Assembly (NCBI GenBank): GCA_020059745.1
Contig: JAGVBK010000003.1
Location: 68,492 to 132,491 of the forward strand
Direction: 5' to 3'
DNA: 64,000 bases
DNA from: Candidatus Shapirobacteria bacterium
GTDB lineage: Bacteria; Patescibacteriota; Microgenomatia; UM-FILTER-40-11
The position numbers and the translations under genes were made by a program. Of this stretch, positions 20,275-57,145 are shown piece after piece. Position 1 is the first letter of the stretch. Each line of letters starts with the position of its first letter. The notes beneath the pieces were generated by a model that saw only the letters and a list, made by a program, of their open reading frames with translations, searched no databases and was not told the origin of the DNA.

Positions 20275-21181
20275 CATGAATCTTTCAATTATCATTGTCA
20301 GCTACAACACCAAGGAACTTTTGAGAAAGTGCCTTGAGTCGGTGATCAGGGATCAGTTATCGGGAATCAGTTATCAGGGATCGGTTGTCGGTAAAAACAA
20401 AAAACCGGTAACCGATAACCAATTACCGGTAACCGAAATCATTGTCGTTGACAATGCTTCAAAAGACGGAAGCGTAGAGTACTTAAGGGAGCTAGTAGAT
20501 AATTCACCGACCACCGACCACCGATCACCGATCACTCTCAGGCTGATAGAAAACAAAGAAAATTTTGGTTTTGCCAAAGCGGCAAATCAAGGTATAAGGA
20601 TAGCAAAAGGAGAAAATATTTTGCTTTTAAATTCAGACACAAAGCTTACTGAAAATTCGCTTAAGAGCCTTTTAGAGTTTGCGGAGAAAGTGCAGCCTGC
20701 TGTGATTGGAGCCCAAATGCTAAATCCCGACGGTTCAGTGCAGGGGTCTTGCTTTTTATTGCCAACCGTTAAAAGAGCGATTTTAGAATATTGGTTGGGG
20801 AAAAAAGATTATTTTTCAAAATACTATCCAAAGGGAGATAGGCCGGTTGAGGTTGAGGCGGTTTCCGGAGGAGCGATGCTAGTCTCAAAAGAGATTGTTA
20901 ATGAAGTGGGAATGCTGGACGAGCGGTATTTTATGTATTTTGAAGACCTTGATTTTTGCCGCCGAGCAAGAAAAGCAGGATATAAAATTTATTATCTTCC
21001 TTCCTCAAAGATCATTCACGAGCACGGAGCCAGCGGTAAAAAACTGGCAGAACCGAAAGATCAATGGCGAAGACTTGTTCCTTCAAGCAAGATTTATCAC
21101 GGCAGCTTAAACCATTTTTTAATCACTTTTATTATTTTAAGCGGGCAGAAAATTAGAAAGCTTTTTACAGGCAAAAAATGA
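20234..21181 (+). CDS. Family 2 glycosyltransferase carrying an in-frame heptamer-repeat insertion.
   Basis: Contains LSIIIVSYNTKEL...VVDNASKDGS...RLIENKENFGFAKAAN...LLNSDT. Relative to the 6348 paralog, an insertion of about 30 aa (DQLSGISYQGSVVGKNKKPVTDNQLPVTE) is encoded by a palindromic heptamer array. Confidence 0.8.
   Translation: MSLASGLFLLSANNMNLSIIIVSYNTKELLRKCLESVIRDQLSGISYQGSVVGKNKKPVTDNQLPVTEIIVVDNASKDGSVEYLRELVDNSPTTDHRSPITLRLIENKENFGFAKAANQGIRIAKGENILLLNSDTKLTENSLKSLLEFAEKVQPAVIGAQMLNPDGSVQGSCFLLPTVKRAILEYWLGKKDYFSKYYPKGDRPVEVEAVSGGAMLVSKEIVNEVGMLDERYFMYFEDLDFCRRARKAGYKIYYLPSSKIIHEHGASGKKLAEPKDQWRRLVPSSKIYHGSLNHFLITFIILSGQKIRKLFTGKK
20344..20434. repeat. Array of about 13 degenerate heptamers forming an imperfect palindrome, inside a GT2 CDS.
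   Basis: The units are GATCAGG GATCAGT TATCGGG AATCAGT TATCAGG GATCGGT TGTCGGT AAAAACA AAAAACC GGTAACC GATAACC AATTACC GGTAACC. Left-arm units contain GTTATCGG, and right-arm units contain its complement CCGATAAC. Confidence 0.65.
20505..20535. repeat. Heptamer tandem repeat CACCGA(C/T) with 4.4 units, inside a GT2 CDS.
   Basis: CACCGAC CACCGAC CACCGAT CACCGAT CAC. It is contiguous with the 38-nt tract shared with the 6348 gene. Confidence 0.65.
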
Positions 21182-22956: not shown

Positions 22957-24215
22957 AAAAGATTATATTATTTGCTTTGATTGTCAGGCTGATTTTTATC
23001 TTTGGCCATTATCACCCTGATTTGGGCAATCATCTTGATTGGGGGAACAGGCTTTGGGAATATGGTGCAAAAAATTTCTATGGAAGTAGCGTGTGGACGG
23101 TTTCCTGGCCTAACCAGCCACCGGGAACAATGTACCTTTGGGGATTATTAAGTAAGGTTAATCAGGGAATCTTTAATGTTTTTTGGTATGTAAACTTAAA
23201 TATTCCTGCCTTTCCATCTTTCATTATCCCTTTTTTGGAAAAAAGTTTACATCCGGCTTTAGTAAAATTGCCTTCAGTTCTGGCTGAACTTGGCATTGGC
23301 TGGCTTATTTATCAGTTTCTTTTACACTTTGGTTTGAAAAAAAAGAAAGCCTTGTCTGGAGCTGCTCTTTTTTTATTTAACCCGGTAATAGTTTACAATT
23401 CCGCAGTTTGGGGGCAGACCGATGGGGTGGTAAACTTTTTTGCACTATTTGCATTCTTTTTAACCCTGAAAAAGAAATATTTATGGGGAATTTTGGCTTT
23501 TATGTTTTCAATATATGTAAAACTGTCTTTGATAATCTTTTTACCTCTGTTTTTGTTGCTTCTCTGGAGGGAAAAAGTCCCGGTTGCAAAAATTATTTTG
23601 AATTTTACCTTATCTTTTTTATTTATTGTCTTGATCAGCCTGCCTTTCACTCATGGCAACCCTGTTCTTTGGTTAAAGGGCCTTTATCAGGCCCGGATTA
23701 TTGGAGGCCAGGGGAATATGCTTACTGCCAATGCCTTTAATCTTTGGGCAATTATTTTTGGAATTGATCTTTCCAGACCCGATGTAGGTACTTTTTTAAA
23801 TTTGAGTTATAAAATTTGGGGAATAATCCTTTTTTCGCTTGGCTTTGTGGCTACTATTTTCAAATTTGAAAAAAATAAATTTAATAATCAAAGCTTTTTC
23901 TTTAGTCTCGCCCTGGTTTCCTTTTTTTCTTTTATGTTTTTAACTAACATGCATGAAAGATACCTATATCCTGCTTTTCCTTATCTTGCTCTGCTTACTG
24001 CCTGGGGTTTTTTGCCCTTGGCGATTTACATAACTATCTCGGTTATTCATTTATTAAATCTTTACAATCTTTGGTTTTATCCAGACATTGGTTTTGGGGT
24101 AAGCTTTTTAAATTGGCTGCCAAGTGTTAAAATTCTTTCGTTAATTCTTCTTTTAATGAACTTTTATATTATCTACCGATTTTATTCATTGAATCAGTCA
24201 AAAAAAGGGGAGTAA
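22953..24215 (+). CDS. GT-C-fold polytopic membrane protein (DUF2029/PIG-V-like); paralog of the 17514 gene.
   Basis: 420 aa and multi-TM with a C-terminal MHERYLY motif. It is interleaved within the ArnT-like array. Confidence 0.45.
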   Translation: MKKIILFALIVRLIFIFGHYHPDLGNHLDWGNRLWEYGAKNFYGSSVWTVSWPNQPPGTMYLWGLLSKVNQGIFNVFWYVNLNIPAFPSFIIPFLEKSLHPALVKLPSVLAELGIGWLIYQFLLHFGLKKKKALSGAALFLFNPVIVYNSAVWGQTDGVVNFFALFAFFLTLKKKYLWGILAFMFSIYVKLSLIIFLPLFLLLLWREKVPVAKIILNFTLSFLFIVLISLPFTHGNPVLWLKGLYQARIIGGQGNMLTANAFNLWAIIFGIDLSRPDVGTFLNLSYKIWGIILFSLGFVATIFKFEKNKFNNQSFFFSLALVSFFSFMFLTNMHERYLYPAFPYLALLTAWGFLPLAIYITISVIHLLNLYNLWFYPDIGFGVSFLNWLPSVKILSLILLLMNFYIIYRFYSLNQSKKGE

Positions 24216-25873
24216 TGAAAAGATATTTAAATTCCGTATTTCTTGCCTTAATTATCTTTTTATCTTTTTTCCTAAGAATTTACCGCTTGGATAATTTGGA
24301 GCTTTTTGGAGATGAAATTGATGTCGGCTACCAAGCCTATTCGGTTTTAAAAACAGCCAGAGACTACCGGGGCAATTTTCTTCCTTTTTATATGGAATCT
24401 TTTTCTGAATCAAGGGCCCCTCTTTTTTTGTATAGCGCTGTCCCTTTTATCAAGATTTTCGGTTTAAATGAATGGGGAGTTAGGCTGCCGGCAGTTTTTT
24501 GGGGGGTTTTGGGAATTGTCTTTTTGTATCTTTTGGTAAAGCTTTTATTTAAAGATTCAAAAACTGCTTTAATTTCTTCCTTGTTGCTGTCAGTTTCGTA
24601 CTGGCACCTTCATTATTCAAGAGCAGCTTTTGAGGTGACCTTACTTTTGTTTTTAGTGCTTTCCGGAACTTATTTTTTCCTTAAAGGAGAAAAAAGGAGA
24701 GTTTTTTATTATTTTTCTGCCTTTTGTTTTGCGCTTTCTTTTTATACCTACAATACTGCAAATGTTTTTGTTCCTTTGTGGGGCCTTTCCCTGGTTATCT
24801 TGAGCCTAAAGGAAACAAAAAAACTTAAGCCACTGCTTCTTCCCGGTTTTGTCTTTTTTTTAGCTGTTTTACCTTTAGGTTTTAAAGTGCTTAATGGCCA
24901 GGCATCCGACCGTTTTTCAAAAATAAGCATATTTTCCGACCCTGCATCAATTAACTGGATCATTAAAAAACGAAGCAGTGGCGATAACTCCTTGAAAGAA
25001 AGATTTTTTTATAATAAGTTAACACGATTTAGTTACAAATTTGGGGAAAATTACTTAACTTCTTTTTCTCCCCAGTTCCTTTTTATCTCCGGCGACCCCA
25101 ATCCCAGACACTCCGTTCCTGGTTTTGGAATGTTTCCGTGGGCTTTTTTGCCGCTACTCCTTTTGGGGATATATTTTTCCCTGAAAAAATTTGACCAAAA
25201 AGAGCATAAGTTTTTATGGTTGTGGTTAGCTTTTTCCCCTCTTGCTTCTGCCCTCACCGCCGAGGGAGGCAATCAAGCCACGCGGCTTTTTCTTATGCTG
25301 CCTGCTTTTGTGGTTCTTATGGCCTTAGGGGTAAAACAGGCTCTTAGCCTCAAGTTTGGAAAAGTGTTAGTGCTTGGTTTTGCCATGCTTTTAATTTTTA
25401 ACATCTTTTCCTATTTTCATGAGCTTTTTTCTCATTATTCAAAAGACCAATTTAAGTACTGGCATTATGGCTATAAAGAAATAACCCTTGCTCTTAAAGA
25501 AAGCGATTGCCGTAGGGTTTACATTAACAATAACCATGAGCCCTTTTTGCCCCGCTACCTTTTTTGGATGAAGAAAGATCCGGCCTGGTTTCAGAAAAAG
25601 TTTGAAGGAGACCAGGGAAATCAGGATATTGGCGAAAACTTTTCCGGTTTCAAGTTGGAAGAAAGCTTTTTTGGCAGGGTGAAGGAAGATGATAAGCTTT
25701 TGGCGATAAAACAAATATTAGAAGAAAAAGATACTTGTTTGATCGCTTTTCAGAAAGACGAAATTCCGGGTGATTGGAATCTTAAAGAAAGCAAACACGA
25801 GGGAATAAATGTTTTAAAGCTGGTAAAGAACCCCTTGGGAGAACCCTATATTTACCTTCTTAAGGGCGACTGA
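24215..25873 (+). CDS. ArnT/PMT-family GT-C glycosyltransferase; array paralog 2.
   Basis: Contains FGDEIDVGYQAYSVLKTARDYRGNFLP, FGLNEWGVRLPAV and SYWHLHYSR. The C-terminal domain has WHYGYKE. Confidence 0.8.
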   Translation: MKRYLNSVFLALIIFLSFFLRIYRLDNLELFGDEIDVGYQAYSVLKTARDYRGNFLPFYMESFSESRAPLFLYSAVPFIKIFGLNEWGVRLPAVFWGVLGIVFLYLLVKLLFKDSKTALISSLLLSVSYWHLHYSRAAFEVTLLLFLVLSGTYFFLKGEKRRVFYYFSAFCFALSFYTYNTANVFVPLWGLSLVILSLKETKKLKPLLLPGFVFFLAVLPLGFKVLNGQASDRFSKISIFSDPASINWIIKKRSSGDNSLKERFFYNKLTRFSYKFGENYLTSFSPQFLFISGDPNPRHSVPGFGMFPWAFLPLLLLGIYFSLKKFDQKEHKFLWLWLAFSPLASALTAEGGNQATRLFLMLPAFVVLMALGVKQALSLKFGKVLVLGFAMLLIFNIFSYFHELFSHYSKDQFKYWHYGYKEITLALKESDCRRVYINNNHEPFLPRYLFWMKKDPAWFQKKFEGDQGNQDIGENFSGFKLEESFFGRVKEDDKLLAIKQILEEKDTCLIAFQKDEIPGDWNLKESKHEGINVLKLVKNPLGEPYIYLLKGD

Positions 25874-26511
25874 TGACAAAAAAAGTTACCGCTATTTTTC
25901 TTGCTTTGGTTTTTATCTCTCCTTGGTTTTGGCTGTTTGTCCGGAGCCCGGGAGCCTTAATTCCCCGAAAAGAGGATCTGTATCAAAGAAATACTCATGA
26001 GTTTATTAGTGAAGTTAACTCCTTTCAAAGCGAAAGCAGGAAACAAAACATAGGGTTATGGGGAAAAATTATTGTGAACAAGGCAACATTCTTGTTTAAG
26101 GATGCAATTACCCGTTATAGCGAGTCTTTTGACTTTCATTTTCTTTTTATTGAAGGTGATTTGGATGTTAAAAAAACCACCAGGGCTTCAGGCCCTCTTT
26201 ACCTTTCATTCTTGCCCTTCATTGCTTACGGTTTTGCTCTTTGCTTTAAAAAAAAGGATTATTGGCCGATTTTTTTTGTTTTTATTTCACCGGCTTTGGC
26301 TGCTTTTTTTAATCAACACTATGAAACCCTGTCCAGAATACCCTTTATTCTTAGCTTGACTGCACTTGCCGCCATGGGAATAAATGCCTTTTCAAAGCTT
26401 AAAGGCTACTTTTTTTTGAAATCAGTTTTTATTTTTTTTCTCATTTTTGAATTTTTAAGGTTTGTTCATTATTACTTTATGCACCACCCGTATCTTTTGC
26501 TAAAAAGATGA
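25873..26511 (+). pseudogene. Internal fragment of an ArnT/PMT-family paralog. Both the N-terminal catalytic loop and the C-terminal domain are missing.
   Basis: The 212-aa ORF aligns only to the central TM region of the neighbouring paralogs: FDFHFLFIEGDLD in the fragment versus FSPQFLFISGDPNPRH and FSPKFLFIEGPKDDRQR in full-length copies. It lacks the DE loop, the SPWH box and the W.YGYKE C-terminal domain. Confidence 0.55.
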
Positions 26512-28169
26512 AAACCAGCTTGAAATTTTCATTGCTTTTAATTTTTTTATTAGCTTTGGGAATGCGCTTTTATAAAATAAGCAAAGTTCCAGCCTCGCTA
26601 AATTGGGATGAGGCAGCCTTTGCTTATAATGCTTACTCAATTCTAGAAACAGGAAAAGATGAGTATGGCTACAGTTTTCCTCTTGAATTTAAGTCTGTGG
26701 GAGATTATAAATGTCCTTTGTTTGTTTATCTCTCTGTTCCGGTAATCAAATACCTTGGTCTTAATGAATTTTCCATCAGGTTTCTTTCCTCTTTTTTTGG
26801 TGCTTTAACTGTTGTAGTTTTCTTTATGCTGGTTAAGGAGCTTTTTAATGATGACCGTTTATCGGTTTTGTCTGGAATTATCCTTTCAATTTCTCCTTGG
26901 CACCTGCAGTTTACCCGGGCTCAGGGGGATGTTGCCATAAGCTCTTTTTTGGTTATTTTAGGTATTTGGCAGTTTTTGGCTTGGGTTAAGGGTGGCAAAA
27001 AAGCTTCAATTTTTGTTTCCATTGCCAGTTTTGCTTTAAGCTTCTATGCATATTTTTCCGAGAGATTTTTTGTTCCGGTTTTAGCCTTGCTGTTTGTATT
27101 TATTTTTAGAAAAGAAATTTTAGAAAAAAGAAAGACTCTTGTGCCAGCTTCTTTTTTGGGTCTTGTTTTGCTTTTTCCTTTGATTTCAACCATGGTTTCG
27201 TCAGGCCAAAAAAGTAAGATTCTAATGACAACCATTTTTGGCTACCGCAGACCCGCAGAATATCTTAGTAGGATGCTTTACGAAGACCATTTCCCGATTC
27301 TTTTTAAAGTTTTTCACCACCCTTTGGTTGAATATCCCTGGATGACGGTTGACCGTTATTTAAATCATTTTTCTCCAAAATTCCTTTTTATTGAGGGGCC
27401 GAAGGATGACCGGCAGAGAATTGAAGGCATGGGTATGCTTTACTGGTCAGACGCAGTTTTGCTTGTCTTGGCATTGGCCTCAATTGCGGGGGGAATAAAA
27501 AAAAGAAAAGAGCTTTTCTTTGTTATGGGTTGGCTTTCAATTTCGCCTTTGCCCTCAATTATTACCAGGGACCCGGTTCACGCCAGAAGAGCTTTTAATA
27601 TGGTTTATCCTCTTTGCATTATTCTCGCTATAGGGATGGTTAAGTTTATTGACCTTGTTAGACAAAAAAAAGGTCTTATAAAAATCTTTCTTTCTTCTTT
27701 CTTTTTTCTTCTTTTTGCCTGGTCTTTTTCTTTCTACCTTTTAAGCTACTATGTTTTTACTCCACCCAGGACAGCTGCCGGTCCCGGAGGGTGGAATTAC
27801 GGCTATAAAGAGTTAGTGGAATATGTTTCTCCTTTAAAAGAAAACTATAACAAAGTAGTGATAGATACCAGCTACCAAGGCCCTTATTTGTTTTTTTTAT
27901 TTTATGAAAAATATCCTCCTTTGAAATATCAACCTCAAGCCCAATTGGTTAAGAAAAATGAGTTTTCACTAGGGGAGGGAAAAGGCTATGACAGCTACGA
28001 GTTCAGAGACATTTACTGGCCCAAAGACCGAGGGCTGAAAAACACTTTGTTTGCCGGCTCTCCCGAGCGGTTGCCTTTGCAGGATATTGACCCCAAAGAA
28101 GCAAGAATTATAAAGAAAATTTATTTTCCCGACGGCAGGGAAGCATTTTATGTGGTTGAGACTTTTTAG
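26508..28169 (+). CDS. ArnT/PMT-family GT-C glycosyltransferase; array paralog 3.
   Basis: Contains NWDEAAFAYNAYSILETGKDEYGYSFP, LGLNEFSIRFLSS and SPWHLQFTR. The C-terminal domain has WNYGYKE. Confidence 0.8.
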   Translation: MKTSLKFSLLLIFLLALGMRFYKISKVPASLNWDEAAFAYNAYSILETGKDEYGYSFPLEFKSVGDYKCPLFVYLSVPVIKYLGLNEFSIRFLSSFFGALTVVVFFMLVKELFNDDRLSVLSGIILSISPWHLQFTRAQGDVAISSFLVILGIWQFLAWVKGGKKASIFVSIASFALSFYAYFSERFFVPVLALLFVFIFRKEILEKRKTLVPASFLGLVLLFPLISTMVSSGQKSKILMTTIFGYRRPAEYLSRMLYEDHFPILFKVFHHPLVEYPWMTVDRYLNHFSPKFLFIEGPKDDRQRIEGMGMLYWSDAVLLVLALASIAGGIKKRKELFFVMGWLSISPLPSIITRDPVHARRAFNMVYPLCIILAIGMVKFIDLVRQKKGLIKIFLSSFFFLLFAWSFSFYLLSYYVFTPPRTAAGPGGWNYGYKELVEYVSPLKENYNKVVIDTSYQGPYLFFLFYEKYPPLKYQPQAQLVKKNEFSLGEGKGYDSYEFRDIYWPKDRGLKNTLFAGSPERLPLQDIDPKEARIIKKIYFPDGREAFYVVETF

Positions 28170-28192
28170 TTTTATAATGGTATAAGAAAAAA

Positions 28193-29854
28193 GTGAAGAA
28201 AATTATTTTAAGCTTAATTTTTATTTTAGCTCTTGGTTTAAGGGTTTACAGGGTTTCCGACTTTCCTGCTGGTCCTAATCTGGACGAGATTTCCCAGGGA
28301 TATACTGCCTATTCAATCCTAAAAACCGGCAGAGACGAATGGGGGGAATTTTTGCCCTTTTCACCCCGGGCTTTTGGAGATTACAGGGCCCCACTTTACA
28401 CTTACCTTATAATTCCCTCAATTGCCGTTTTTAACTTAAACGAGTTTGCCCTTCGCTTTCCGGCTGCGGTTTTGGGCAGCTTGGCAGTTTTAGTGCTTTA
28501 TTTTCTGGTAAAAGAGCTTTTTGGAGATGAAAAAATTTCACTTGCCGCTTCTTTATTATTGGCAATAAGCCCTTGGCATTTACCCCTTTCCAGGGGAGCT
28601 TTTGAGGCTTCTCTTCATGTTTTCCTTTTTCCTTTAGGAATGTTTCTTTTTTTAAAAGGCCTAAAAAAACATTTTTGGCTTTTCCCCTCGGCCGTTATTT
28701 TTGGCCTAAACCTATTTAGCTATTATGCGCCAAGGCTATTTACGCCTTTAGCGGTTTTGTTACTGGTTTATTTTTTTAGGAAAGAATTTTTTAAGAAAAA
28801 AGCAAACTTGGGTTTTATCTTTGTTTTTGGAACACTGTCTTTATTTGCCTTCTTTGCACTTTTAGTTGGCGGAACCAGGGTCTCTGACACCAGTCTTTTA
28901 AGCCCGACCGACAAATGGCAGTGGGTGGCAAACAGACAGTACGAGGCAGCTTGGAATGGTCTTTCTCCACTGGTAGAAAAAGCTTTTAATAATAAGGTTT
29001 CTTTTCTTTCAACTGTTTTTTATAAACAATATTTAGATTATTTTTCTCTAAGCTTTCTTTTTAGCCGCGGGCCGGCTGAAGCTACTTACGGCATGATTCC
29101 CGGACGCGGGGTTCTTTATCTTTTTGAACTGCCTTTGGTTTTTTATGGCATTTACCTTCTTATCAAAAGTAAGGAAAAAAAACAGGGTGTTTTGGTTTTA
29201 GCTTTGCTTTTAATTTCTCCTCTTTCAGCTGCTTTGGCAAAAGGAGAAAGAGCGGCAAATAGGGCTGTTACCATGCTGCCTCTTTGGCAGATAGTCTCAG
29301 CCGCAGGGGCCTTAGGGGTTTTGCAGTACTTTCAAAAATATGTTTCAAAAAAACTTTTGATATTTTTATTTGTTGCTTTTTCTTTTGTCTCTCTTGCCTT
29401 TTTCCTTGAAGACTATTTTTATCACGCTCCGGTGGTAAATGCTCCCAGTATGTCTTATGGCTGGAAGGAGGCGAGCGGCTATCTTTTAAAAGAAAGCAAA
29501 AACTATGACAAAATAATTGTCAGCAGAAAACTTTCGGAACCCCAGATTGCGGTTGCCTATTTTTTGAAAATGGAGCCTAAGACAGTGCAGCAATATTCAC
29601 CGGAATGGCTGGAATATGAGCAAAAAGGCCTTCTTTTTGTGGATCAATTGCAAAAATACAATCTTGACAAGTTTGAATTTAGAGATTTTCATTTTCCGGA
29701 AGACCAGAAATTGCCAAACACCCTTTTTGTTGGTAAACTTGAAGACTTTGCCGGGGTAAAAGGTGAAATTAAAAAGAAGGTTTATTATCCGGGGCCTGAC
29801 CAAAGGATTGCTTTAATAATTATGAGTTTTGAAAATGAAGAAGGCAGTAATTAA
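28193..29854 (+). CDS. ArnT/PMT-family GT-C glycosyltransferase; array paralog 4.
   Basis: Starts with GTG in the ORF track. Contains NLDEISQGYTAYSILKTGRDEWGEFLP, FNLNEFALRFPAA and SPWHLPLSR. The C-terminal domain has MSYGWKE. Confidence 0.8.
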   Translation: MKKIILSLIFILALGLRVYRVSDFPAGPNLDEISQGYTAYSILKTGRDEWGEFLPFSPRAFGDYRAPLYTYLIIPSIAVFNLNEFALRFPAAVLGSLAVLVLYFLVKELFGDEKISLAASLLLAISPWHLPLSRGAFEASLHVFLFPLGMFLFLKGLKKHFWLFPSAVIFGLNLFSYYAPRLFTPLAVLLLVYFFRKEFFKKKANLGFIFVFGTLSLFAFFALLVGGTRVSDTSLLSPTDKWQWVANRQYEAAWNGLSPLVEKAFNNKVSFLSTVFYKQYLDYFSLSFLFSRGPAEATYGMIPGRGVLYLFELPLVFYGIYLLIKSKEKKQGVLVLALLLISPLSAALAKGERAANRAVTMLPLWQIVSAAGALGVLQYFQKYVSKKLLIFLFVAFSFVSLAFFLEDYFYHAPVVNAPSMSYGWKEASGYLLKESKNYDKIIVSRKLSEPQIAVAYFLKMEPKTVQQYSPEWLEYEQKGLLFVDQLQKYNLDKFEFRDFHFPEDQKLPNTLFVGKLEDFAGVKGEIKKKVYYPGPDQRIALIIMSFENEEGSN

Positions 29855-31475
29855 ACAAATAGGGTTAGTTTTATTGGTAGCTTTTTCTCTTTTTCTCAGG
29901 CTCTATAAAATATCAAGCTTGCCGCCTTCTCTTAATTGGGACGAGGTTTCTCACGGATTTAATGCTTTTTCAGTTTTAGAAACCGGAAAAGATGAATGGG
30001 GCCAAAGTTTTCCCTTAATTTTTCGAGCCTATGGCGACTATAAGCTTCCTTTATATATATATTTAACCTCTCTTTCAATAAAATTCTTCGGCTTAAACAT
30101 TTTTTCGGTTCGGCTTGTTTCCGCTTTGGCGGGAACAGGATTGGTGCTGGTTTCATATCTGATTGCTTTAAAGATTACAAAAAGCAAAAGCCTTTCCTTT
30201 TTTGCCGCTTTTTTAACAGCCGTTTCTCCTTGGAGTCTTTTTGTTTCAAGGGCCGGTCTTGAGGCAAACCTTGCCGCTTTTTTGTTTGCTTTGGGGGTTT
30301 ACTTTTTAATCAATTTTTTAGATAAAAGTGATTACAAAAAACTTTCTTATACCGCGTTTTTCTGGGGGCTTTCAGTTTATGCTTATAATTCTGCCAGGGT
30401 TTTAGTGCCTTTATTTGTGCTTTTTTGCCTGCTTCTTTTTATAAAGACCAAAGTAAGTTTTAGACATATTAAGTTGGGATTGATTGTTTTGTCTATTTTT
30501 TCCCTGCCGGTATTCGGTCAAATTTTTAATAAAACCGGGCAGGCCAGATTTAATCTTGTGGCCATTAACGACGAGGGCGCGGTGGCAAAAATTATTGAAC
30601 AAAGGCAAAACTCTAAGCTTGGTCCTTTTGTGACAAGGCTAATCTATAACCGGCCGGTAAATTTTTTACATACTGCTTTTAAAAATTACATTAGCAATCT
30701 TTCTCCTAGGTATCTCTTTTTAAGAGGGGGGAGCCATTACCAGTTTTCCATGCCCGACCATGAGCTTCTTTATCTGGTAATTTCTCCCTTTCTTCTCTTT
30801 GGCTTAGGCAGGTGTCTTTTCTCTAAAGAGGCAAAAGTTAAGCTGCTTTTTTTCTGGTTTTTAGCTGCTTTTATTCCCTCGGCAATAACCAAAGACGCAC
30901 CTCATGTTTTAAGAAGTATTTTGATTTTGCCGGCGCCAATGATAATAAGCGCATATGGGGTGGGAGGGATAACAGAAAGAATAAAAGGGAGGTCTTTGTT
31001 TAAAGGCCAGCTTCTTCTTTGGGTTTTAATTTTTGCTGTTTTAGTAAGTTTTGTCCACTGGTGGCAGGACTATTTTAATATTTATCCTAAAGCTTATTCT
31101 TGGGCTTGGCAATATGGTTACAAAGAGGCGGTTTTGTTTATGAAAGAAAACTACCAAAACTATGACAAAATTTTTGTAACCAAAAGGCATGGAGAGCCTC
31201 ACGAGTTTGTATTGTTTTATTTTGGCTGGAACCCACAGGATTATCAGAATGATCCTTTAAAAAAGTGGGATTACCATGCCGGTTGGTATTGGGTTGACGG
31301 TTTTGATAAATTTGTTTTTCTTAACGACTGGGAAGTTTCCGTTAAGGCAGCTTGCCCCAAAGCAGAAAAATGCCTGCTTGTTACCAGCCCCGGGAATCAT
31401 TCAAACGGTTGGTCAAAACAAAGTGAAGTAAAATTTTTGGACGGAAAAACAGCTTTTGAAATATTAGAAAAATGA
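29829..31475 (+). CDS. ArnT/PMT-family GT-C glycosyltransferase; array paralog 5.
   Basis: Contains NWDEVSHGFNAFSVLETGKDEWGQSFP and SPWSLFVSR. The C-terminal domain has WQYGYKE. It overlaps the upstream gene by 26 nt. Confidence 0.8.
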   Translation: MKMKKAVIKQIGLVLLVAFSLFLRLYKISSLPPSLNWDEVSHGFNAFSVLETGKDEWGQSFPLIFRAYGDYKLPLYIYLTSLSIKFFGLNIFSVRLVSALAGTGLVLVSYLIALKITKSKSLSFFAAFLTAVSPWSLFVSRAGLEANLAAFLFALGVYFLINFLDKSDYKKLSYTAFFWGLSVYAYNSARVLVPLFVLFCLLLFIKTKVSFRHIKLGLIVLSIFSLPVFGQIFNKTGQARFNLVAINDEGAVAKIIEQRQNSKLGPFVTRLIYNRPVNFLHTAFKNYISNLSPRYLFLRGGSHYQFSMPDHELLYLVISPFLLFGLGRCLFSKEAKVKLLFFWFLAAFIPSAITKDAPHVLRSILILPAPMIISAYGVGGITERIKGRSLFKGQLLLWVLIFAVLVSFVHWWQDYFNIYPKAYSWAWQYGYKEAVLFMKENYQNYDKIFVTKRHGEPHEFVLFYFGWNPQDYQNDPLKKWDYHAGWYWVDGFDKFVFLNDWEVSVKAACPKAEKCLLVTSPGNHSNGWSKQSEVKFLDGKTAFEILEK

Positions 31476-33124
31476 AGTTGATAAAAAAATATTTATTTGT
31501 GGCAGTATTTTTGCTTGCCTTGTTTCTGAGGCTTTATAAACTGGGGGAGTTCCCAGTAGGTTTTTTGTGGGATGAGGCTGCTTTGGGTTATAATGCCTAC
31601 TCAATCTTAAAAACCGGCCGCGACGAATATGGGAAAGCCCTGCCCTTAATTTTTAAATCTTTTGGTGATCATAAGCCTGGTTTTTATATTTATTTGACAG
31701 TTCCCTCAGTGGCGGTTTTTGGTCTTAATGAGTTTGCCGTCAGGTTTCCTTCGGCGATTTTTGGCAGTTTGTCTGTTTTGTTTATTTACCTTCTTTTAAA
31801 AGAAAGAAACTTAAGAGTTGCTCTTTTTGCCTCGGCTGCCCTGGCTGTTTCGCCTTGGCATTTTTCTTTTTCCCGCGGCGCTTGGGAACTTAATGTGATG
31901 ACTTTTGAAATTCTCGGAGGCCTATATTTTTTAACCAAGTATTTAACTTTAAAAAAGGTTTTTCATTTGTACCTTTCTGCGCTTTTTTGGGTTATTACGC
32001 TTTTTACCTATCAGTCAGCCAAAGCCTTGGTTCCGGCGCTTTTATTTGGTTTTGTTTTCTTTTTTCGCAGAGAGCTTAAAGGAATTTCCCTTAAGCCAAA
32101 ATTCGTGTTTGCTGCTCTTTTTTTAGCTTCTTTTTTATTTTTTAACTTTCTCACGGCTACCGGTGGACGCTCAGGCAGAATTAAAGTGATGAGCGTTTTT
32201 TCTTACCCCCGTTCGCAGGAGGAAACCCAGGCGATTTTAGAACAAGATGAGGGAGACCGGGTAAGTTGGAAACTCTTTCATAATTCTTTGGTGTTTTTTA
32301 GCCGCGGTGTCTTGGGGCGATACTTAAACCACTTTTCAGGGAATTTCCTATTTTTTTCAGGGGATTGGTCTAATCCCAGAAATGGGGTTGTTTACCACGG
32401 CGTTTTATATCTTCCTGACCTGATTTTTGTAATTGCAGGGCTAGGGATACTTTTCAGCCGTAAAAGAGCACCTTCAGAAAACTTAATGCTTTACTGGTTG
32501 CTCCTGGCACCGCTTCCTTCTGCCGTAACCCGGGATATTATTTCCTCAGTCAGGTCTTTTACCATGGTTATTCCTTTTGTTTTCCTTATTGCCACGGGAA
32601 TGGACGGAATTCTCAATTTGCTTTCTAAAAAAAGATTTAAGATTGCAGGAGCAGTTACTTTTCTTTTAATTTACACTGTATTTTTTGTTCGTTTTCTGGA
32701 TCTTTATTTTATTCACGATCCAGAAATTAATGCCCAAGACCGCCTTTACGGGTACAAAGAAATGGTGGAATACATAAACCCGAGGGTACATACAAAAAAC
32801 AAAGTGGTGGTTACTTCAAAATACGGCCAACCCTACATTTTTTATCTTTTTTACACGAAATACGACCCGTCTTTATATCAAAAACAAGCCAGCCTTAAGG
32901 AAAGCGAAGTGGGTGATGTCGGCGAGGTTGAGAGAATTGACAACATTGAGTTTCGTAAAGTTTATTGGCCGGACGACCGGGGAAAAGAAAATTCGCTTTT
33001 TGTTGACGACGAATTTGGTTTGCCTATGCATGACCTTTTAGGGGAGGAAGAAAAGCATGTTATTCTTAAAGAAATAAAATACCCAAACCAAAAAGTAGCT
33101 TTTAGAATAGTGGAAACAAAATAA
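31472..33124 (+). CDS. ArnT/PMT-family GT-C glycosyltransferase; array paralog 6.
   Basis: Contains LWDEAALGYNAYSILKTGRDEYGKALP, FGLNEFAVRFPSA and SPWHFSFSR. The C-terminal domain has LYGYKE. Confidence 0.8.
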   Translation: MKLIKKYLFVAVFLLALFLRLYKLGEFPVGFLWDEAALGYNAYSILKTGRDEYGKALPLIFKSFGDHKPGFYIYLTVPSVAVFGLNEFAVRFPSAIFGSLSVLFIYLLLKERNLRVALFASAALAVSPWHFSFSRGAWELNVMTFEILGGLYFLTKYLTLKKVFHLYLSALFWVITLFTYQSAKALVPALLFGFVFFFRRELKGISLKPKFVFAALFLASFLFFNFLTATGGRSGRIKVMSVFSYPRSQEETQAILEQDEGDRVSWKLFHNSLVFFSRGVLGRYLNHFSGNFLFFSGDWSNPRNGVVYHGVLYLPDLIFVIAGLGILFSRKRAPSENLMLYWLLLAPLPSAVTRDIISSVRSFTMVIPFVFLIATGMDGILNLLSKKRFKIAGAVTFLLIYTVFFVRFLDLYFIHDPEINAQDRLYGYKEMVEYINPRVHTKNKVVVTSKYGQPYIFYLFYTKYDPSLYQKQASLKESEVGDVGEVERIDNIEFRKVYWPDDRGKENSLFVDDEFGLPMHDLLGEEEKHVILKEIKYPNQKVAFRIVETK

Positions 33125-34758
33125 TGATAAAAACAAAATCAGGAAAGATTATTCTTGTTTTGATATTTTTTTTAACTCTATTTTTAAGAACTTTCAAACT
33201 CAATGAGTTTCCGACTGGTCTTAATGCAGACGAGGCTGCTATTGGTTACAATGCCTACAGTTTAATTCAAACAGGCAAAGATGAGTTTGGCCATGCCTGG
33301 CCTGTTAATTTTCAGTCTTTTAATGACTTTAAGCCTGGTTTGTATTTTTATTTGGTTTTGCCGTTTGTAAAAGCTTTAGGACTTAATGAGTGGGCGGTTA
33401 GGCTTCCCTCAGCTTTGATGGGAACTTTAACAGTTGTTGTTTTGTATTTCTTGCTGAAAGAATTTTTTTCCAAAGAAGCAGCCTTGGTTTCAGCGCTGCT
33501 TTTATCTTTGAGCCCCTGGCATCTTCATTTTTCCCGGGGCGGTTGGGAAACAAACGCCGCTACTTTTTTCATTGTTTTGGGAATTTGGCTTTTTGTCAAA
33601 GCTTTTAAAAAGCCCGGTTTCTTTGTTCTTAGTGTTCTTTGTTTTGGACTTTCAATGCTTGCCTACCACAGTGCCAGAGTAGTGGCGCCGCTTTTGGGAT
33701 TGGGCCTGGTTTTTATGAATTTTTCCCAGGTTTTTGCAAAGAAAAACTTTAAATGGCTTTTGGCGAGTTTCTTTGTCGGCATTGTTTTTTTAATCCTTTT
33801 GGCCTCTTCTTTTCTAGGCGAAGCAGGAGCTTCGAGGTTTTCAGGAGTCGGCATTTTTGCCGACCAAGGGCCGCTCTGGCGGGTGAATGAGCTTAGAGGA
33901 CAGCACCCTGATCCTTTTTCCACTTTTTCAAAGTTAGCACACAACAAGTTTGTGGAATATTCTTTTCGCTTTGTTGACAATTGGCTGCGCCACTTTAGCG
34001 GTAATTTTCTATTTATTTCCGGTGACGAAATCCAAAGAAACAGAGTTCCGGAAATGGGCCAGTTTCTTTTAATTGAACTGCCGTTTTTAGTTTTTGGCTT
34101 TTACTTTTTATTAAGAAACAAACCAAAATTTTGGCTGTTTTTTCTTGGGTGGGTTGCCGTTGCTCCCATTGCTTCGGCTTTAACATTTCAGTCTCCCCAT
34201 GCCATAAGAGCCTTGAATATGGTAATACCATTGATTGTTTTAGCCGGGTACGGAATAACTCAATCATTTTTATGGTTGAAAAGTAAAACAAAACTGTATG
34301 GGGCATTAAGTATTATGTATTTGGTATTTTTTGTCTGGAATTTTAGTTTTTATTTACATCAGTACTATGTCCATTATCATAAAACCTATCCGGCAGCCTG
34401 GGAGGATGGCTTTAGAGAACTGGCTGGATATGTTTCTGGTAGAAAGGATGACTTTGAAAGAATTTATATCACCAACAAATATGACCAGCCTTATATTTTG
34501 ATGGCCTTTTATTTAAAATACCCGCCGGAAAAATTCCAAGAGCAAGCAGTGCTGACACCAAGGGACCAATTTGGCTTTTCTACCGTTGACCGCTTTGATA
34601 AGTTTTACTTTGGCCCAATCGATTATGAAAGCCTAAGCGGGCAAGAAAACATTATGATTATCGGTTCTTCCGGAGAGATACCCGATTCTGCTACAATAGC
34701 CAAGAGAATTTACTTTAGAGACGGAAAGACAGAGGCGTTTAGGATAGTTGAATATTGA
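33124..34758 (+). CDS. ArnT/PMT-family GT-C glycosyltransferase; array paralog 7.
   Basis: Contains NADEAAIGYNAYSLIQTGKDEFGHAWP, LGLNEWAVRLPSA and SPWHLHFSR. The C-terminal domain has WEDGFRE. Confidence 0.8.
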   Translation: MIKTKSGKIILVLIFFLTLFLRTFKLNEFPTGLNADEAAIGYNAYSLIQTGKDEFGHAWPVNFQSFNDFKPGLYFYLVLPFVKALGLNEWAVRLPSALMGTLTVVVLYFLLKEFFSKEAALVSALLLSLSPWHLHFSRGGWETNAATFFIVLGIWLFVKAFKKPGFFVLSVLCFGLSMLAYHSARVVAPLLGLGLVFMNFSQVFAKKNFKWLLASFFVGIVFLILLASSFLGEAGASRFSGVGIFADQGPLWRVNELRGQHPDPFSTFSKLAHNKFVEYSFRFVDNWLRHFSGNFLFISGDEIQRNRVPEMGQFLLIELPFLVFGFYFLLRNKPKFWLFFLGWVAVAPIASALTFQSPHAIRALNMVIPLIVLAGYGITQSFLWLKSKTKLYGALSIMYLVFFVWNFSFYLHQYYVHYHKTYPAAWEDGFRELAGYVSGRKDDFERIYITNKYDQPYILMAFYLKYPPEKFQEQAVLTPRDQFGFSTVDRFDKFYFGPIDYESLSGQENIMIIGSSGEIPDSATIAKRIYFRDGKTEAFRIVEY

Positions 34759-35190
34759 ACCATGAACAATGAATGCTGAACCATGAATATTGAAACATGA
34801 ACAAGATTTTGAATTTTTACGACCTAGATGCATGGAAAGAGGGACGCAAATTAGTATTAATGAATTATAAATTAACGGAAAATTTTCCAGAAAAAGAAAA
34901 ATTTTGTCTGGTTTCACAAATGAACAGAGTGGCAATTTCAATAACTTCTAATATTGCAGAGGGATTTACGAGAATGGGGGTTAAAGATAAAACTAATTTT
35001 TATTATATGGCGAAAGCTTCTTTAACTGAATTACAAAATCAGTTTATCTTGGCTAAGGAGTTATCTTATGTCACTCCGAATGAATTTAATGAAACATGGC
35101 TGCAGACAGTTATAGTTCACAAATTAATAACAGGGATAATCAAAGGTGTTAATAATTTACATGGTTCATAGTTCATGATTCATAATTCAA
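34748..35190. mobile_element. Putative small cassette: the IVS-protein gene bounded by inverted heptanucleotide repeat arrays.
   Basis: The left arm at 34748-34804 has 8 units of NTGAANN at exact 7-nt spacing, spanning the upstream stop and the IVS start. The right arm at 35158-35190 has 4-5 units of the reverse complement TTCANNN, spanning the IVS stop and the downstream start. Confidence 0.3.
34797..35171 (+). CDS. Four-helix-bundle protein of the 23S rRNA intervening-sequence (IVS) protein family.
   Basis: 124 aa, all helical. The hallmark SNIAEGF motif is present, in the typical KF.IA.GS..E-like context. It is flanked by inverted heptamer arrays. Confidence 0.7.
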   Translation: MNKILNFYDLDAWKEGRKLVLMNYKLTENFPEKEKFCLVSQMNRVAISITSNIAEGFTRMGVKDKTNFYYMAKASLTELQNQFILAKELSYVTPNEFNETWLQTVIVHKLITGIIKGVNNLHGS

Positions 35191-36008
35191 AGCCCGAGCT
35201 TTCTGTTGCCTTGGCTACCTATAATGAGGAGCGTATTTTGACAGAATGCCTCTCAAGCATTAAGTCTATAGCTGACGAAATTGTGGTTGTTGACGGTTCT
35301 TCTCAGGATAAAACAGTAGAAATTGCCCGGTCTTTTGGGGCGAAAGTAATAGTTGAAGACAATAAGCCTATTTTTCATATTAACAAACAAATTGCGATTG
35401 ACGAATGCCGCGGAGACTGGATTTTGCAGCTTGATGCTGATGAAATTGTTACTCCTGAACTGGCCAGAGAGATAGAAAAAATTGTTAAGGCTTCTGATAA
35501 TCGATCACTGATGGCCGATAACCAACCCGTTGCTTTTTACATTAAAAGAAAAAAAATGTTTTTGGGAAGATTTATAAAAAAGGGCGGCCAATATCCTGAT
35601 CCGGTGATCAGGCTTTTTAAAAAAGGAAAGGCTTTTTTGCCTTGTAAAAGCGTTCATGAGCAGATGCAGGTAAACGGAGAAACCGGTTGGCTTAAAGAGC
35701 CAATGCTTCATTTGCCAACGCCAAGCTTTAGTGTCTATATTACCAAAGATAACCGCTACTCAACTTTAACTGCAAACGAATTCTATGATAAAAATTTGGC
35801 ACTAAATGCTCAAAGCTTTTTGACTTATGTTTTTGTAAAACCTTTTTTAACTTTCTTTTCTCTTTTTATTAGGCACCGCGGCTTTGAGGATGGCTTTCCC
35901 GGTTTTGTTTTTGCGCTTTTTTCGGGTCTTCACTATGTTTCTGCTTATGTAAAGTATTGGGAAATGAAGAATACAAAAAATAAAGATATTGAAAAAGACT
36001 GGAAATGA
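35175..36008 (+). CDS. Family 2 glycosyltransferase.
   Basis: Contains LSVALATYNEERIL...VVVDGSSQDKT...DADE. It is paralogous to the 2601 and 7286 genes. Confidence 0.8.
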   Translation: MIHNSKPELSVALATYNEERILTECLSSIKSIADEIVVVDGSSQDKTVEIARSFGAKVIVEDNKPIFHINKQIAIDECRGDWILQLDADEIVTPELAREIEKIVKASDNRSLMADNQPVAFYIKRKKMFLGRFIKKGGQYPDPVIRLFKKGKAFLPCKSVHEQMQVNGETGWLKEPMLHLPTPSFSVYITKDNRYSTLTANEFYDKNLALNAQSFLTYVFVKPFLTFFSLFIRHRGFEDGFPGFVFALFSGLHYVSAYVKYWEMKNTKNKDIEKDWK

Positions 36009-55364: not shown

Positions 55365-55664
55365 ATGTCATTTTTTATAGCTTTAATTTCACTTATTCTG
55401 GTTAACATTTTTTTACTAAAAATAGAAAGCGAATTAATTTATGTTTTTATACCAGTAATTGTGATTTTTACAGAAAAGCACTTTAAAGTCGATGCAAAAA
55501 TAACTATAGTTTCGGGACTCTTTTTTTTATCTTTATGTGCGGTTTTCATGCTTATAAATGAAACCGTGGCATCTAAGCTCGCTGTCTGGGCGTTTTTGCT
55601 TTTGCTTTCCGGAACATTTAAAATGATATTTCAGCAAGAAGAAACTAAAAAATTAAAAAAATGA
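55365..55664 (+). CDS. Small membrane protein with 3 TM helices.
   Basis: 99-aa ORF packed between overlapping neighbours. It is hydrophobic with a lysine-rich tail. Confidence 0.45.
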   Translation: MSFFIALISLILVNIFLLKIESELIYVFIPVIVIFTEKHFKVDAKITIVSGLFFLSLCAVFMLINETVASKLAVWAFLLLLSGTFKMIFQQEETKKLKK

Positions 55665-57145
55665 AGATAGTTATTGGTTATCCGCCGCTTAAGTCAGAGA
55701 AAGGTATTCCTCAGATTTCTCAAAATCGCCAATTCCAATGGACAGCAGGCGGTCCGCTTTCTTATTTTATTTACCCGGTTATCCCCGCTTATGCAGCCAG
55801 TTTATTAAAAGAAAGAGGTTATGAAGTTTACTGGCTTGATGGTTTGGCCGAGAAAATGACTTACGAGCAGTGGGAAAAGAAACTGCTGGAAATTAAACCT
55901 GATATTTTAGCCATTGAAACAAAAACTCCGGTTATCAAATACCACTGGCAAATCATTAAACAACTTAAAAAACTGGTCACTGATCACTGGTCACTGGTTA
56001 CTGTCTTGATGGGCGATCATGTTACTGCCTTGCCAGAAGAATCATTTTCAAAATGTCCTGTCGACTATATTTTAACCGGCGGTGATTATGATTTTGGCCT
56101 TCTTTCCATTGCTAATCATTTAAGCAAAGGCGAGAAGTTAGATTCTGGCATATATTACCGCACCAAAAACGATGATTCGAAGTTCATGGTTCATGGTTCA
56201 AAGTTCAAGTTAAATCATAGTCTTGACGAGTTGCCCCTAATTGATCGGGATTTAACAAAGTGGCACCTCTATGCTTACAGAAATTCGAATTTTTACCGCG
56301 CTCCCGGAGCCTACACAATGTTTGGTCGGGATTGCTGGTGGGGAAAATGTTCATTTTGTTCCTGGACAACTCTTTTTCCCGGAGAAAAATTCAGAGTAAT
56401 GAGCGTTAAACAGGCGATTGCTGAAGTGAAGAATTTGGTTGAAAACTATCATGTTAAGGAAATAATGGACGATTCGGGCACTTTTCCGACCGGCGATTGG
56501 TTAAGGGAATTTTGTGAAGAAATTATTAAAAGAGGATACCAGAAAAAAATTAATATTAACTGCAATATGCGGTTTAACTGCGGGCTTTCACAAAAAGATT
56601 ATAACTTGATGGGGAAAGCGGGTTTCAGGTTTATTCTTTATGGTCTTGAATCGGCGAACCAGGAAACACTTGACAAGCTTAATAAAAATCTCAAGGTTGA
56701 GCAAATAGAGCCGGCCCTTAGCGCGGCAAAAAAGGCTGGGCTCAAGCCCCATGTAACCGTAATGGTCGGCTACCCGTGGGAAGGAGAAAAAGAAATTCAA
56801 AAAACAGTCTCTTTTGTCAAAAATCTTTTTGAAAAAGAGTTGGTTGATACAATGCAGGCCACAGTAGTAATTCCTTACCCCGGAACTCCTCTTTTTGAGG
56901 AATGTAAAAAGAAAAAACTTCTTAAAACTTTGGACTGGAATAGGTATGACATGAGAGAGCCCATTATGAAGGCTGGGGTTTCCGATGAAAAGCTAATGTG
57001 TGCCGTCAGGGAGCTATATAGCAGTTCCGTTTGGAATAAGACCTTTGTATTTAATACACTTAAGAAATTAGGAAACTATGATGGTTTTAAGTATGTTTCT
57101 TTTCAGGGATTTAAGTATTTAGGAAAACTTTTAGAATTCAAGTGA
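55661..57145 (+). CDS. Cobalamin-binding (class B) radical SAM enzyme.
   Basis: It has an N-terminal B12-binding-like domain, then FGRDCWWGKCSFC (CxxxCxxC). It carries two heptamer-repeat patches, at 55974-56001 and 56183-56210, inside the CDS. Confidence 0.75.
   Translation: MKIVIGYPPLKSEKGIPQISQNRQFQWTAGGPLSYFIYPVIPAYAASLLKERGYEVYWLDGLAEKMTYEQWEKKLLEIKPDILAIETKTPVIKYHWQIIKQLKKLVTDHWSLVTVLMGDHVTALPEESFSKCPVDYILTGGDYDFGLLSIANHLSKGEKLDSGIYYRTKNDDSKFMVHGSKFKLNHSLDELPLIDRDLTKWHLYAYRNSNFYRAPGAYTMFGRDCWWGKCSFCSWTTLFPGEKFRVMSVKQAIAEVKNLVENYHVKEIMDDSGTFPTGDWLREFCEEIIKRGYQKKININCNMRFNCGLSQKDYNLMGKAGFRFILYGLESANQETLDKLNKNLKVEQIEPALSAAKKAGLKPHVTVMVGYPWEGEKEIQKTVSFVKNLFEKELVDTMQATVVIPYPGTPLFEECKKKKLLKTLDWNRYDMREPIMKAGVSDEKLMCAVRELYSSSVWNKTFVFNTLKKLGNYDGFKYVSFQGFKYLGKLLEFK
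55974..56001. repeat. Heptamer tandem repeat TG(G/A)T(C/T)AC with 4 units, inside a cobalamin radical-SAM CDS.
   Basis: TGGTCAC TGATCAC TGGTCAC TGGTTAC. It encodes VTDHWSLVT, which is absent from the paralog at 46303. Confidence 0.6.
56183..56210. repeat. Heptamer tandem repeat GTTCA(T/A)(G/A) with 4 units, inside a cobalamin radical-SAM CDS.
   Basis: GTTCATG GTTCATG GTTCAAA GTTCAAG. It belongs to the same family as the arrays flanking the IVS gene. Confidence 0.6.

Follow-up and report, generated by a model that had tools for sequence, protein, structure and literature searches.

To our knowledge, the PF05635 protein family has solved structures and no known function or catalytic activity, and it is known mainly from the intervening sequences (IVSs) of 23S rRNA. 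Where the IVSs of Leptospira and Coxiella burnetii contain an open reading frame (ORF), this ORF belongs to PF05635, and terminal inverted repeats on both sides of it pair into a stem. The C. burnetii IVS has a 28-bp terminal stem with three to four GACAGAT heptamers directly before the ATG of its S23p ORF; strains differ in the number of heptamers, and the first repeat is where RNase III cleaves (PMC4990558). Here we analysed a 64,000-nt stretch of a Candidatus Shapirobacteria genome (Microgenomates, Patescibacteria; assembly GCA_020059745.1, contig JAGVBK010000003.1, forward-strand positions 68,492 to 132,491; hereafter the window), in which a gene for a 124-aa intervening-sequence protein (IVP) of this same family is enclosed by two inverted arrays of tandem heptamers. 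In contrast to a 23S rRNA IVS, the element lies between two protein genes of an operon and not in an rRNA helix (25 or 45), and an Rfam scan of 34000-36000 returned nothing relevant and no rRNA match. Because of this location, the window element is not an rRNA IVS. It also differs from the Coxiella IVS, whose ORF is decaying, in that strong purifying selection acts on its own ORF.

Heptanucleotide arrays are also known apart from PF05635. The short tandemly repeated repetitive (STRR) heptanucleotides of cyanobacteria were reportedly described by Mazel et al. in 1990, and such repeats are said to have been found inside RNase P RNA by Vioque in 1997. In Xanthomonas, GGGAATC arrays form 70-75 convergent inverted pairs, which for the most part lie between genes of one direction and have no reported link to PF05635 (PMC4692102). 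Together with the Nostoc GGGGAYT and Beggiatoa TAACTGA arrays, these repeats share with the cassette their tandem 7-nt units, typically about four per array; they are transcribed, and most are located between co-directional genes. There is overlap in sequence type ("flavour") as well: Xanthomonas GGGAATC contains GAAT, and the IVP arms of Nostoc edaphicum read GGGAGTA. The published arrays were read as G-quadruplex or regulatory sequences and were not linked to PF05635, whereas here they flank one specific gene as its two arms. Like STRRs, these arms are tandem 7-nt units above chance frequency. The most fitting description of the window element is that of an IVS-type cassette in an mRNA context, the arms of which consist of STRR-like heptamers. 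The reading that we favour, with middling confidence, is that it is a long-resident copy of a widespread IVS-type "heptamer-foldback" cassette, in which the PF05635 gene sits in the loop of a hairpin and the arms would loop it out of the transcript.

The left arm (34748-34804, forward strand) consists of eight tandem heptamers NTGAAYN with the core G-A-A-Y, and direct reading places its TGAA tetranucleotides at 34749, 34756, 34763, 34770, 34777, 34784, 34791 and 34798, a spacing of exactly 7 nt. The upstream host gene (33124-34758, forward strand), which is the last of a tandem run of ArnT-like (PMT_2) glycosyltransferase genes, has its final codons and stop inside this arm and terminates on the TGA of unit 2 (34756-34758), while the ATG of the IVP gene (34797-35171, forward strand) overlaps unit 8 at 34797-34799. 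The right arm (35158-35190, forward strand) is the reverse complement of the left one and holds four to five heptamers TTCANNN, with TTCA at 35165, 35172, 35179 and 35186, preceded by a degenerate fifth unit at 35158. Within this arm lie the IVP stop codon TAG (35169-35171) and the ATG (35175-35177) of a family 2 glycosyltransferase (GT2) gene (35175-36008, forward strand), whose first residues MIHNS come from the arm. The arms now provide the stop codon of the upstream gene and the start codon of the downstream gene. Tandem Repeats Finder (TRF) assigned period 7 to both arrays, and the unit numbers, the exact spacing and the course of both arrays through the neighbouring stop and start codons, as the original prediction had described them, were all confirmed by direct reading and TRF.

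We then compared these arrays with chance expectation. The pattern TGAA-N3-TGAA-N3-TGAA with at most one mismatch had 13 matches in the window against 1.3 expected, a number that none of 100 shuffles reached, and apart from one 1-mismatch match at 47301 these were confined to the two arms and to 56176-56207. A generic scan of the window gave eight period-7 regions, as opposed to 0.15 in shuffles, and at most one region for any other period between 4 and 12. The outermost part of the left arm (34748-34773, forward strand) pairs with 35165-35190 at 85% complementarity over 26 nt, closing a stem around the entire gene; a longer 37-nt alignment of the two arms is 76% complementary. Moreover, the minimum free energy fold of 34735-35205 pairs the arrays around the whole IVP gene, and the predicted arm-to-arm duplex energy is -41.9 kcal/mol. 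The earlier suggestion of a long imperfect stem enclosing the gene agrees with these results.

The protein itself was assigned without difficulty to the "23S rRNA intervening-sequence protein" family, with 105 bits for PF05635 (cut-off 33.8, E 3e-30) and 93.8 bits for TIGR02436 (cut-off 24), and it carries the SNIAEGF motif. In an AlphaFold2 monomer model (pLDDT 92) it forms four helices, and the array-encoded termini alone, that is the first ~7 and last ~3 residues, are predicted to be disordered. The IVS-family four-helix-bundle protein with the SNIAEGF hallmark that had been proposed from the letters alone was thus corroborated by both profiles and by the model. Foldseek returned the structures 2gsc (TM 0.84-0.93; phmmer E 6e-19) and 2rld (TM 0.8-0.9), which have five chains each (pentameric), and more distantly the Avd structures 4dwl and 8ub7. 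Avd proteins of diversity-generating retroelements (DGRs) have the same four-helix-bundle fold, and the Avd pentamer binds structured RNA in the DGR ribonucleoprotein. We nevertheless rejected an identity as Avd, because the Avd profiles scored below their cut-offs (NF033474, 27 bits vs 80; PF22296, 27.5 vs 40) and no reverse transcriptase was seen either among the four flanking genes scanned, all glycosyltransferases, or in the contig's precomputed Pfam list up to 10 kb downstream. Scans of the IVP protein gave no match to a nuclease, recombinase or transposase motif or domain, and PADLOC gave no match to a defence system.

To see how general the arrangement is, we considered a scan with one genome per species, which comprised 80 loci with relatives at 49-59% identity, most of them labelled as metagenome-assembled genomes of Patescibacteria (Candidate Phyla Radiation, CPR) and many labelled otherwise. 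Flank statistics were computed for 83 CPR genes with complete flanks over periods 3-12, with 415 random segments from the same loci as controls. Period 7 was best in 79/83 left flanks (95%) and 77/83 right flanks (93%), as compared to 37/415 controls (9%), and the median array length was 29 nt per side, or about four units. A core G-W-A-K was common to 76 loci in a shared register (GTAT in 33, GAAT in 28, GTAG in 9 and GAAG in 6), while heptamer positions 5-7 varied between loci. The left consensus was the reverse complement of the right consensus at six or more of the seven positions in 56 of the 83, and the left array most often ended 2-3 nt into the IVP start codon. The two arms of a locus had a median predicted duplex energy of -37.6 kcal/mol; the corresponding values were -24.4 when arms of different loci were combined and -21.2 when arms were shuffled. 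For the best ungapped stem, the median length was 27 bp and the median complementarity 86%; at least 20 bp were reached in 70/84 stems, and mismatches clustered at heptamer positions 5 and 7. A similar picture was obtained with plasmid-borne cyanobacterial and Riemerella copies, where period 7 was found in 13/17 left and 15/17 right flanks, most of them inverted, with the flavours TCAGGAG, GGGAGTA, GGGAAAA, GGGTGTA, GGAGATA and AAGGTTY. The gene and its inverted arrays therefore recur as a unit at unrelated sites, in CPR and in other phyla, and the published Coxiella 23S IVS is built in the same way. Rfam found tRNAs only, and no rRNA, in 16 related loci with atypical neighbours, for which reason the CPR copies examined are not rRNA IVSs either.

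The neighbourhood of these genes bears on the proposal that the element is invertible. The upstream neighbour was co-oriented with the IVP gene in 73/83 loci and the downstream neighbour in 68/83, with median gaps of 30 nt upstream and 27 nt downstream, approximately one array length. Since the arrays fill both spacers, there is no room for a promoter or terminator of the cassette's own. An invertible or actively excising switch that uses the inverted arrays as recombination sites would explain why a segment is flanked by inverted repeats. The strong orientation bias with the host operon argues against it, as do the lack of an invertase or integrase in or beside the cassette and the identical structure of independent samples (L001 and L002; L117-L119), among which no array polymorphism at the population level was seen. 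We consider such a switch extremely improbable, and a site-specific invertible segment was rejected on the co-orientation and the lack of a recombinase.

The history of the window copy could be followed in related genomes. The same site (PMT_2 gene, IVP gene, GT2 gene) was occupied in nine distinct related loci, namely L083, L084, L094, L097, L117-L119, L121 and L122 (L120, a duplicate of L117, was left out of this count). IVP identity across these orthologs was 57-85%, and synonymous sites were saturated (proportion of synonymous differences ~0.75). Since the nonsynonymous divergence of the IVP gene (0.07-0.23) was no higher than that of the neighbouring GT2 gene (0.19-0.25) despite this saturation, the IVP gene is under strong purifying selection. 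The GAAY flavour was kept in all same-site orthologs, with four to ~10 units on the left and three to five on the right. Within the window lineage (window, L083, L084 and L097) the right arm was near-identical (29-30/33 nt), and in more distant orthologs it kept the TTCA flavour and differed in sequence and unit number. The arrays gain and lose units in slippage-type changes.

Two relatives, L095 and L096, have empty sites, with the same ArnT-like/GT2 junction and neither IVP gene nor arrays; their identity to the window is 67% for GT2 and 58-60% for the ArnT-like gene. In these empty sites the ArnT-like gene and the GT2 gene overlap by ~38 nt (...TTTAGGATCGTCGAAAATTAAGCTTTCCGTT). Alignment of empty and filled sites places a host string ATMGTYGAA at both insertion ends of the filled sites. 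In L083 the target copies read ATAGTTGAA on the left and ATAGTTCAA on the right, and at the left end of L117 the sequence ATCGTCGAA is kept exactly. This points to an apparent, degenerate target duplication of ~9 bp at this one insertion site, the two copies of which would form the first and last heptamer units. After the insertion, the GT2 gene has lost its original first ~8 codons and starts from the ATG of the right arm (MIHNSK...). Locus L098 has no IVP gene, yet it carries three ATTCANN units and the GT2 N-terminus MIQNSK, and it could be a cassette remnant. Given the empty relatives and the apparent duplication, the cassette behaves as an insertion on evolutionary time scales. As far as sequence comparison can tell, its entry into the overlapping ArnT-like/GT2 junction took place in an ancestor of a Microgenomates/Shapirobacteria clade. 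It has been inherited vertically since, and the window copy is old and long-resident. Of the mobile hairpin cassette put forward in the original prediction, the insertion over evolutionary time has therefore stood. Its inversion has found no support, and neither has recent or current excision, the site being filled in nine distinct related loci with saturated synonymous sites and purifying selection.

Signs of recent spread were scarce. The window holds a single IVP copy, copies on one contig were 31-60% identical save for one tandem pair at 88%, and no relatives were found on viral contigs. The tandem pair is found in L024, which has three tandem IVP cassettes on one contig (8-340, 933-1295 and 2992-3366): two are 88% identical and of GTATTTC flavour, and the third is 55-59% identical and of GTAGCAT flavour. 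This pair was the only sign of recent duplication that we saw.

We also asked where the flavour of the arms comes from. The nearest protein neighbour had the same core type in 64/81 cases, as compared to a mean of 27.5 and a maximum of 45 in 1000 shuffling trials. Among nearest-neighbour pairs without homology in the flanking DNA, the core was still the same in 52/66. Since related proteins at non-homologous sites share their core, the arms owe their flavour to descent with the protein and not to the place of insertion, and an origin of the arrays from target sequence was rejected for the same reason. At the window site, the outermost unit on each side does fall on the duplicated target.

In the mechanism that we propose for the foldback cassette, the cassette would be co-transcribed with the glycosylation operon and its arms would pair with each other in the transcript. 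Owing to its 7-nt periodicity, the helix could still form in a shifted register after units have been gained or lost by slippage. Pairing would loop the cassette out and bring the upstream stop codon beside the downstream start codon, on the same principle as at those 23S rRNA helix tips that carry an intervening sequence with a PF05635 gene. By analogy with Coxiella, we infer that RNase III may cut the stem of the cassette. Several observations weigh against this model. The whole 471-nt fold is unexceptional (z -1.6), and the stems are interrupted, with a longest perfect helix of 10 bp in the median and 7 bp in the window, for which reason they may be poor RNase III substrates. The signature expected for sense RNA was weak: the sense duplex was the more stable one in 52 loci and the antisense duplex in 32 (p 0.007), and G.U-type mismatches (56) were not significantly commoner than A.C-type mismatches (47). 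The conserved G-W-A-K core and its covariation with the protein are not demanded by pairing alone. Heptamer hairpins also occur in frame within coding genes, for instance at 20338-20442, where cleavage would harm. Finally, the flanks of 304-663 in the cyanobacterial locus L115 (a Pseudanabaena galeata plasmid) carry direct arrays and not inverted ones (AAAAGCT x12 upstream, AAAAGCC x9 downstream), an exception to the foldback design.

Because of these points, a rival in which the protein binds its cognate heptamers was kept alive. In this alternative, the cassette is part of a DNA-level gene-repeat system: a putative PF05635 pentamer would recognise cognate arrays, which serve as terminal inverted repeats made of tandem binding sites, and promote their spread or maintenance. 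ORF-less heptamer hairpins would then be non-autonomous derivatives, in analogy to RAYT-REPIN or to eukaryotic Foldback elements. Such hairpins of two inverted arrays, with loops of -2 to 110 nt, are present in CPR loci at L072 3609-3684, L007 4388-4474, L042 1787-1861, L059 4552-4671, L064 4448-4575 and L029 5008-5161. About half of them carry the core of a nearby IVP cassette, and the one in L072 has the same flavour as the cassette adjacent to it. That many ORF-less hairpins exist in the same genomes is consistent with a gene-repeat system, and so are the core type that tracks protein phylogeny at non-homologous sites (52/66), the G-W-A-K core conserved beyond what pairing needs, the empty and filled sites with their apparent target duplication, the fold relative Avd, a nucleic-acid-binding pentamer in the DGR ribonucleoprotein, and the REPIN precedent (PMC3116915). 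It sits poorly with the lack of a nuclease, recombinase or transposase match, with same-contig copies that are mostly 31-60% identical and show no recent bursts (one pair at 88%), with a window copy that has not moved over the time that saturated its synonymous sites, and with the fact that no relatives were found on viral contigs. In addition, solo arrays matched the local cassette flavour only modestly, at 29% vs 16% for at least six of seven positions. We regard the gene-repeat system as unlikely but worth serious consideration, and it and the favoured model of pairing in RNA are not mutually exclusive.

The position of the arrays at stop and start codons is also what would be expected if they were mainly translational devices. 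The putative pentamer might bind the G-W-A-K repeats at its own start codon, as a TRAP- or HutP-like self-repressor, or the arrays might serve termination-reinitiation coupling only. Three features would fit: the left array mostly ends within the IVP start codon, the arrays hold the upstream stop and downstream start codons, and the array-encoded protein termini are predicted to be disordered. Neither the reverse-complement relation of the 3' arm to the 5' arm nor the ORF-less hairpins are explained in this way, and the median array has ~4 units, not 5. The idea of five heptamers matching five subunits was likewise unsupported, with a median array of ~29 nt. Altogether, we find a mainly translational role improbable. 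Of note, GGAG or GAGG precedes only 8-10% of any genes in these genomes, and the absence of a Shine-Dalgarno sequence is therefore uninformative about coupling.

Heptamer arrays are not restricted to IVP genes. Outside the cassettes we counted 112 period-7 arrays in 405 kb of CPR loci, and one of the arrays in the window, at 56176-56208, has the same flavour as the cassette arms. This orphan array, which the original prediction had placed at 56183 and regarded as a possible solo footprint, lies in frame in a loop of a B12-binding radical-SAM gene (55661-57145). The same gene has a second in-frame array at 55972-56003, and both arrays lie in surface loops. In 19 radical-SAM orthologs both loops were indel-rich and often contained either gaps or peptides whose back-translation gives heptamers of a different flavour; IRNTKYEIRNT, for one, corresponds to ATWCGAA repeats. 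One ortholog has a 35-aa insertion. Since orthologs carry other flavours or gaps at this position in a hypervariable loop, a cassette footprint at 56176 was not demonstrable and was dropped, and the orphan array belongs to the general heptamer phenomenon. Heptamer arrays appear to be long-lived and fast-changing occupants of CPR protein loops.

Such abundance might mean that replication slippage, in genomes prone to heptamers, generates the arrays as by-products without a function, and that they merely pile up beside the gene. Unit numbers do differ among orthologs, arrays are plentiful elsewhere (eight regions in the window, and in CPR loci as well), and heptanucleotide repeats are the commonest long class of simple sequence repeats in prokaryotes (PMC4679880). 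Slippage alone, however, does not account for arrays at 95% of left and 93% of right boundaries vs 9% of controls, for an inverted arrangement with locus-specific complementarity, for a right arm that is 29-30/33 nt identical in the window lineage despite saturated synonymous sites, or for the same design across phyla. This explanation is therefore already disfavoured, and we consider it very improbable.

It was of interest to compare the foldback cassette with other small insertions. The Correia/nemis elements of Neisseria are co-transcribed miniature inverted-repeat transposable elements, i.e. small insertions in transcription units that are bounded by terminal inverted repeats, form RNase III-substrate hairpins and duplicate their target. 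They differ from the cassette in having no ORF, fixed terminal inverted repeat sequences and many near-identical copies. The cassette resembles REPIN-RAYT systems in that a single-copy gene is flanked by its inverted cognate repeat and ORF-less hairpin doublets are dispersed between genes (PMC3116915). The differences are that RAYT is an HUH transposase, that the repeat there is a 20-25-nt palindrome and here consists of tandem heptamers, and that the flavour link between cassettes and solo arrays is weakly supported here. An integron gene cassette was rejected, as tandem heptamers lie on both sides of the ORF, in place of a single attC hairpin at the 3' end, and no integrase is found among the neighbours. 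Transposable and foldback elements have terminal inverted repeats, which are present here, and a transposase domain and near-identical copies, which are absent; a classical transposon was rejected on the lack of a transposase domain, the single copy in the window and the 31-60% identity between copies on the same contig (one pair at 88%).

Within the literature searchable in full text, which leaves subscription-only publications outside its scope, we found no statement of a general association of PF05635 with heptamers, and the only heptamers described beside an S23p ORF were those of Coxiella. The widespread cassette is thus apparently a genetic element that has not been described so far. That the gene nearly always sits between lineage-specific inverted arms, and that gene and arms are inherited together across sites and phyla, ties the puzzle of PF05635 to that of the heptanucleotide arrays (STRR, GGGAATC and TAACTGA). 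A bolder reading, which we think rather doubtful, is that PF05635 and heptamer arrays together form a pan-bacterial gene-repeat system, in which a putative pentamer recognises hairpins of its own heptamer and propagates or stabilises them. The ORF-containing cassettes would then be autonomous, and cyanobacterial STRRs, Xanthomonas GGGAATC pairs, in-frame CPR hairpins and ORF-less rRNA IVSs would, on the same doubtful premise, be their non-autonomous kin. If true, this would give a function to a family of more than 30,000 clusters (32,270 at 50% identity) and would trace rRNA intervening sequences and STRR repeats, both puzzles for more than 30 years, to a common origin.

There are practical consequences as well. 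The cassettes shift the stop and start codons of their neighbours, create read-through "fusion" gene calls and probably account for reported IVP-family "associations" with CRISPR loci. Many cluster representatives, among them P0251 (380 aa), P0253 (887 aa) and P0304 (502 aa), are long proteins with a complete N-terminal IVP domain; these may be read-through fusions of a cassette with the downstream host gene via the right array, or artefacts of gene calling. A large-scale screen lists "23S rRNA IVP" among the proteins associated with CRISPR adaptation modules (PMC10910872). In cyanobacteria we observed IVP cassettes within CRISPR-cas operons, in the orders cas6-IVP-cas4 and cas10-IVP-cmr3 (L089, Anabaena sp. 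90; L115, Pseudanabaena; L091, Picosynechococcus PCC 7003), and cassette insertion in cas operons may be what lies behind the listing. On the Nostoc edaphicum plasmid pNe_5 (L108), the arms of the cassette at 295-663 are perfect arrays of GGGAGTA / TACTCCC, and the cassette runs antisense to the two ribonucleotide-reductase genes between which it is placed. This cassette is among the minority that are not co-oriented with their neighbours, and its heptamer belongs to the G-rich kind that has been studied elsewhere for G-quadruplex formation.

In the window, the cassette is located between the end of the ArnT-like (PMT_2) run and a block of GT2/GT4 glycosyltransferase genes, all on one strand, and the two flanking genes on each side of the IVP gene (four genes scanned) all encode glycosyltransferases. 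The run spans 24215-34758 and comprises six consecutive ArnT-like paralogs of ~550 aa each on one strand, interrupted by a 212-aa ORF at 25873-26511; only the last two paralogs were scanned against Pfam. It is followed by GT2, GT4, mannosyltransferase and flippase-like genes, which together make up a large glycosylation locus typical of CPR. Another GT2 gene (20276-21181) contains an in-frame hairpin of ~100 nt, in which GATCAGK x7 (20344-20391) and ACCGRTA x5 (20403-20436) are inverted around an 11-nt loop; for 20338-20442 the predicted RNA folding energy is -32.7 kcal/mol (z -3.6). Downstream of this hairpin, at a distance of 70 nt, there is a third array (CACCGAY x4.4, 20505-20535), and the arrays of this gene resemble TAACTGA/STRR-type repeats, not the GAAY of the cassette. 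Lastly, the ArnT-like gene next to the cassette itself contains a three-unit GTATT-type heptamer array (34295-34337), at a distance of 450 nt on the upstream side.

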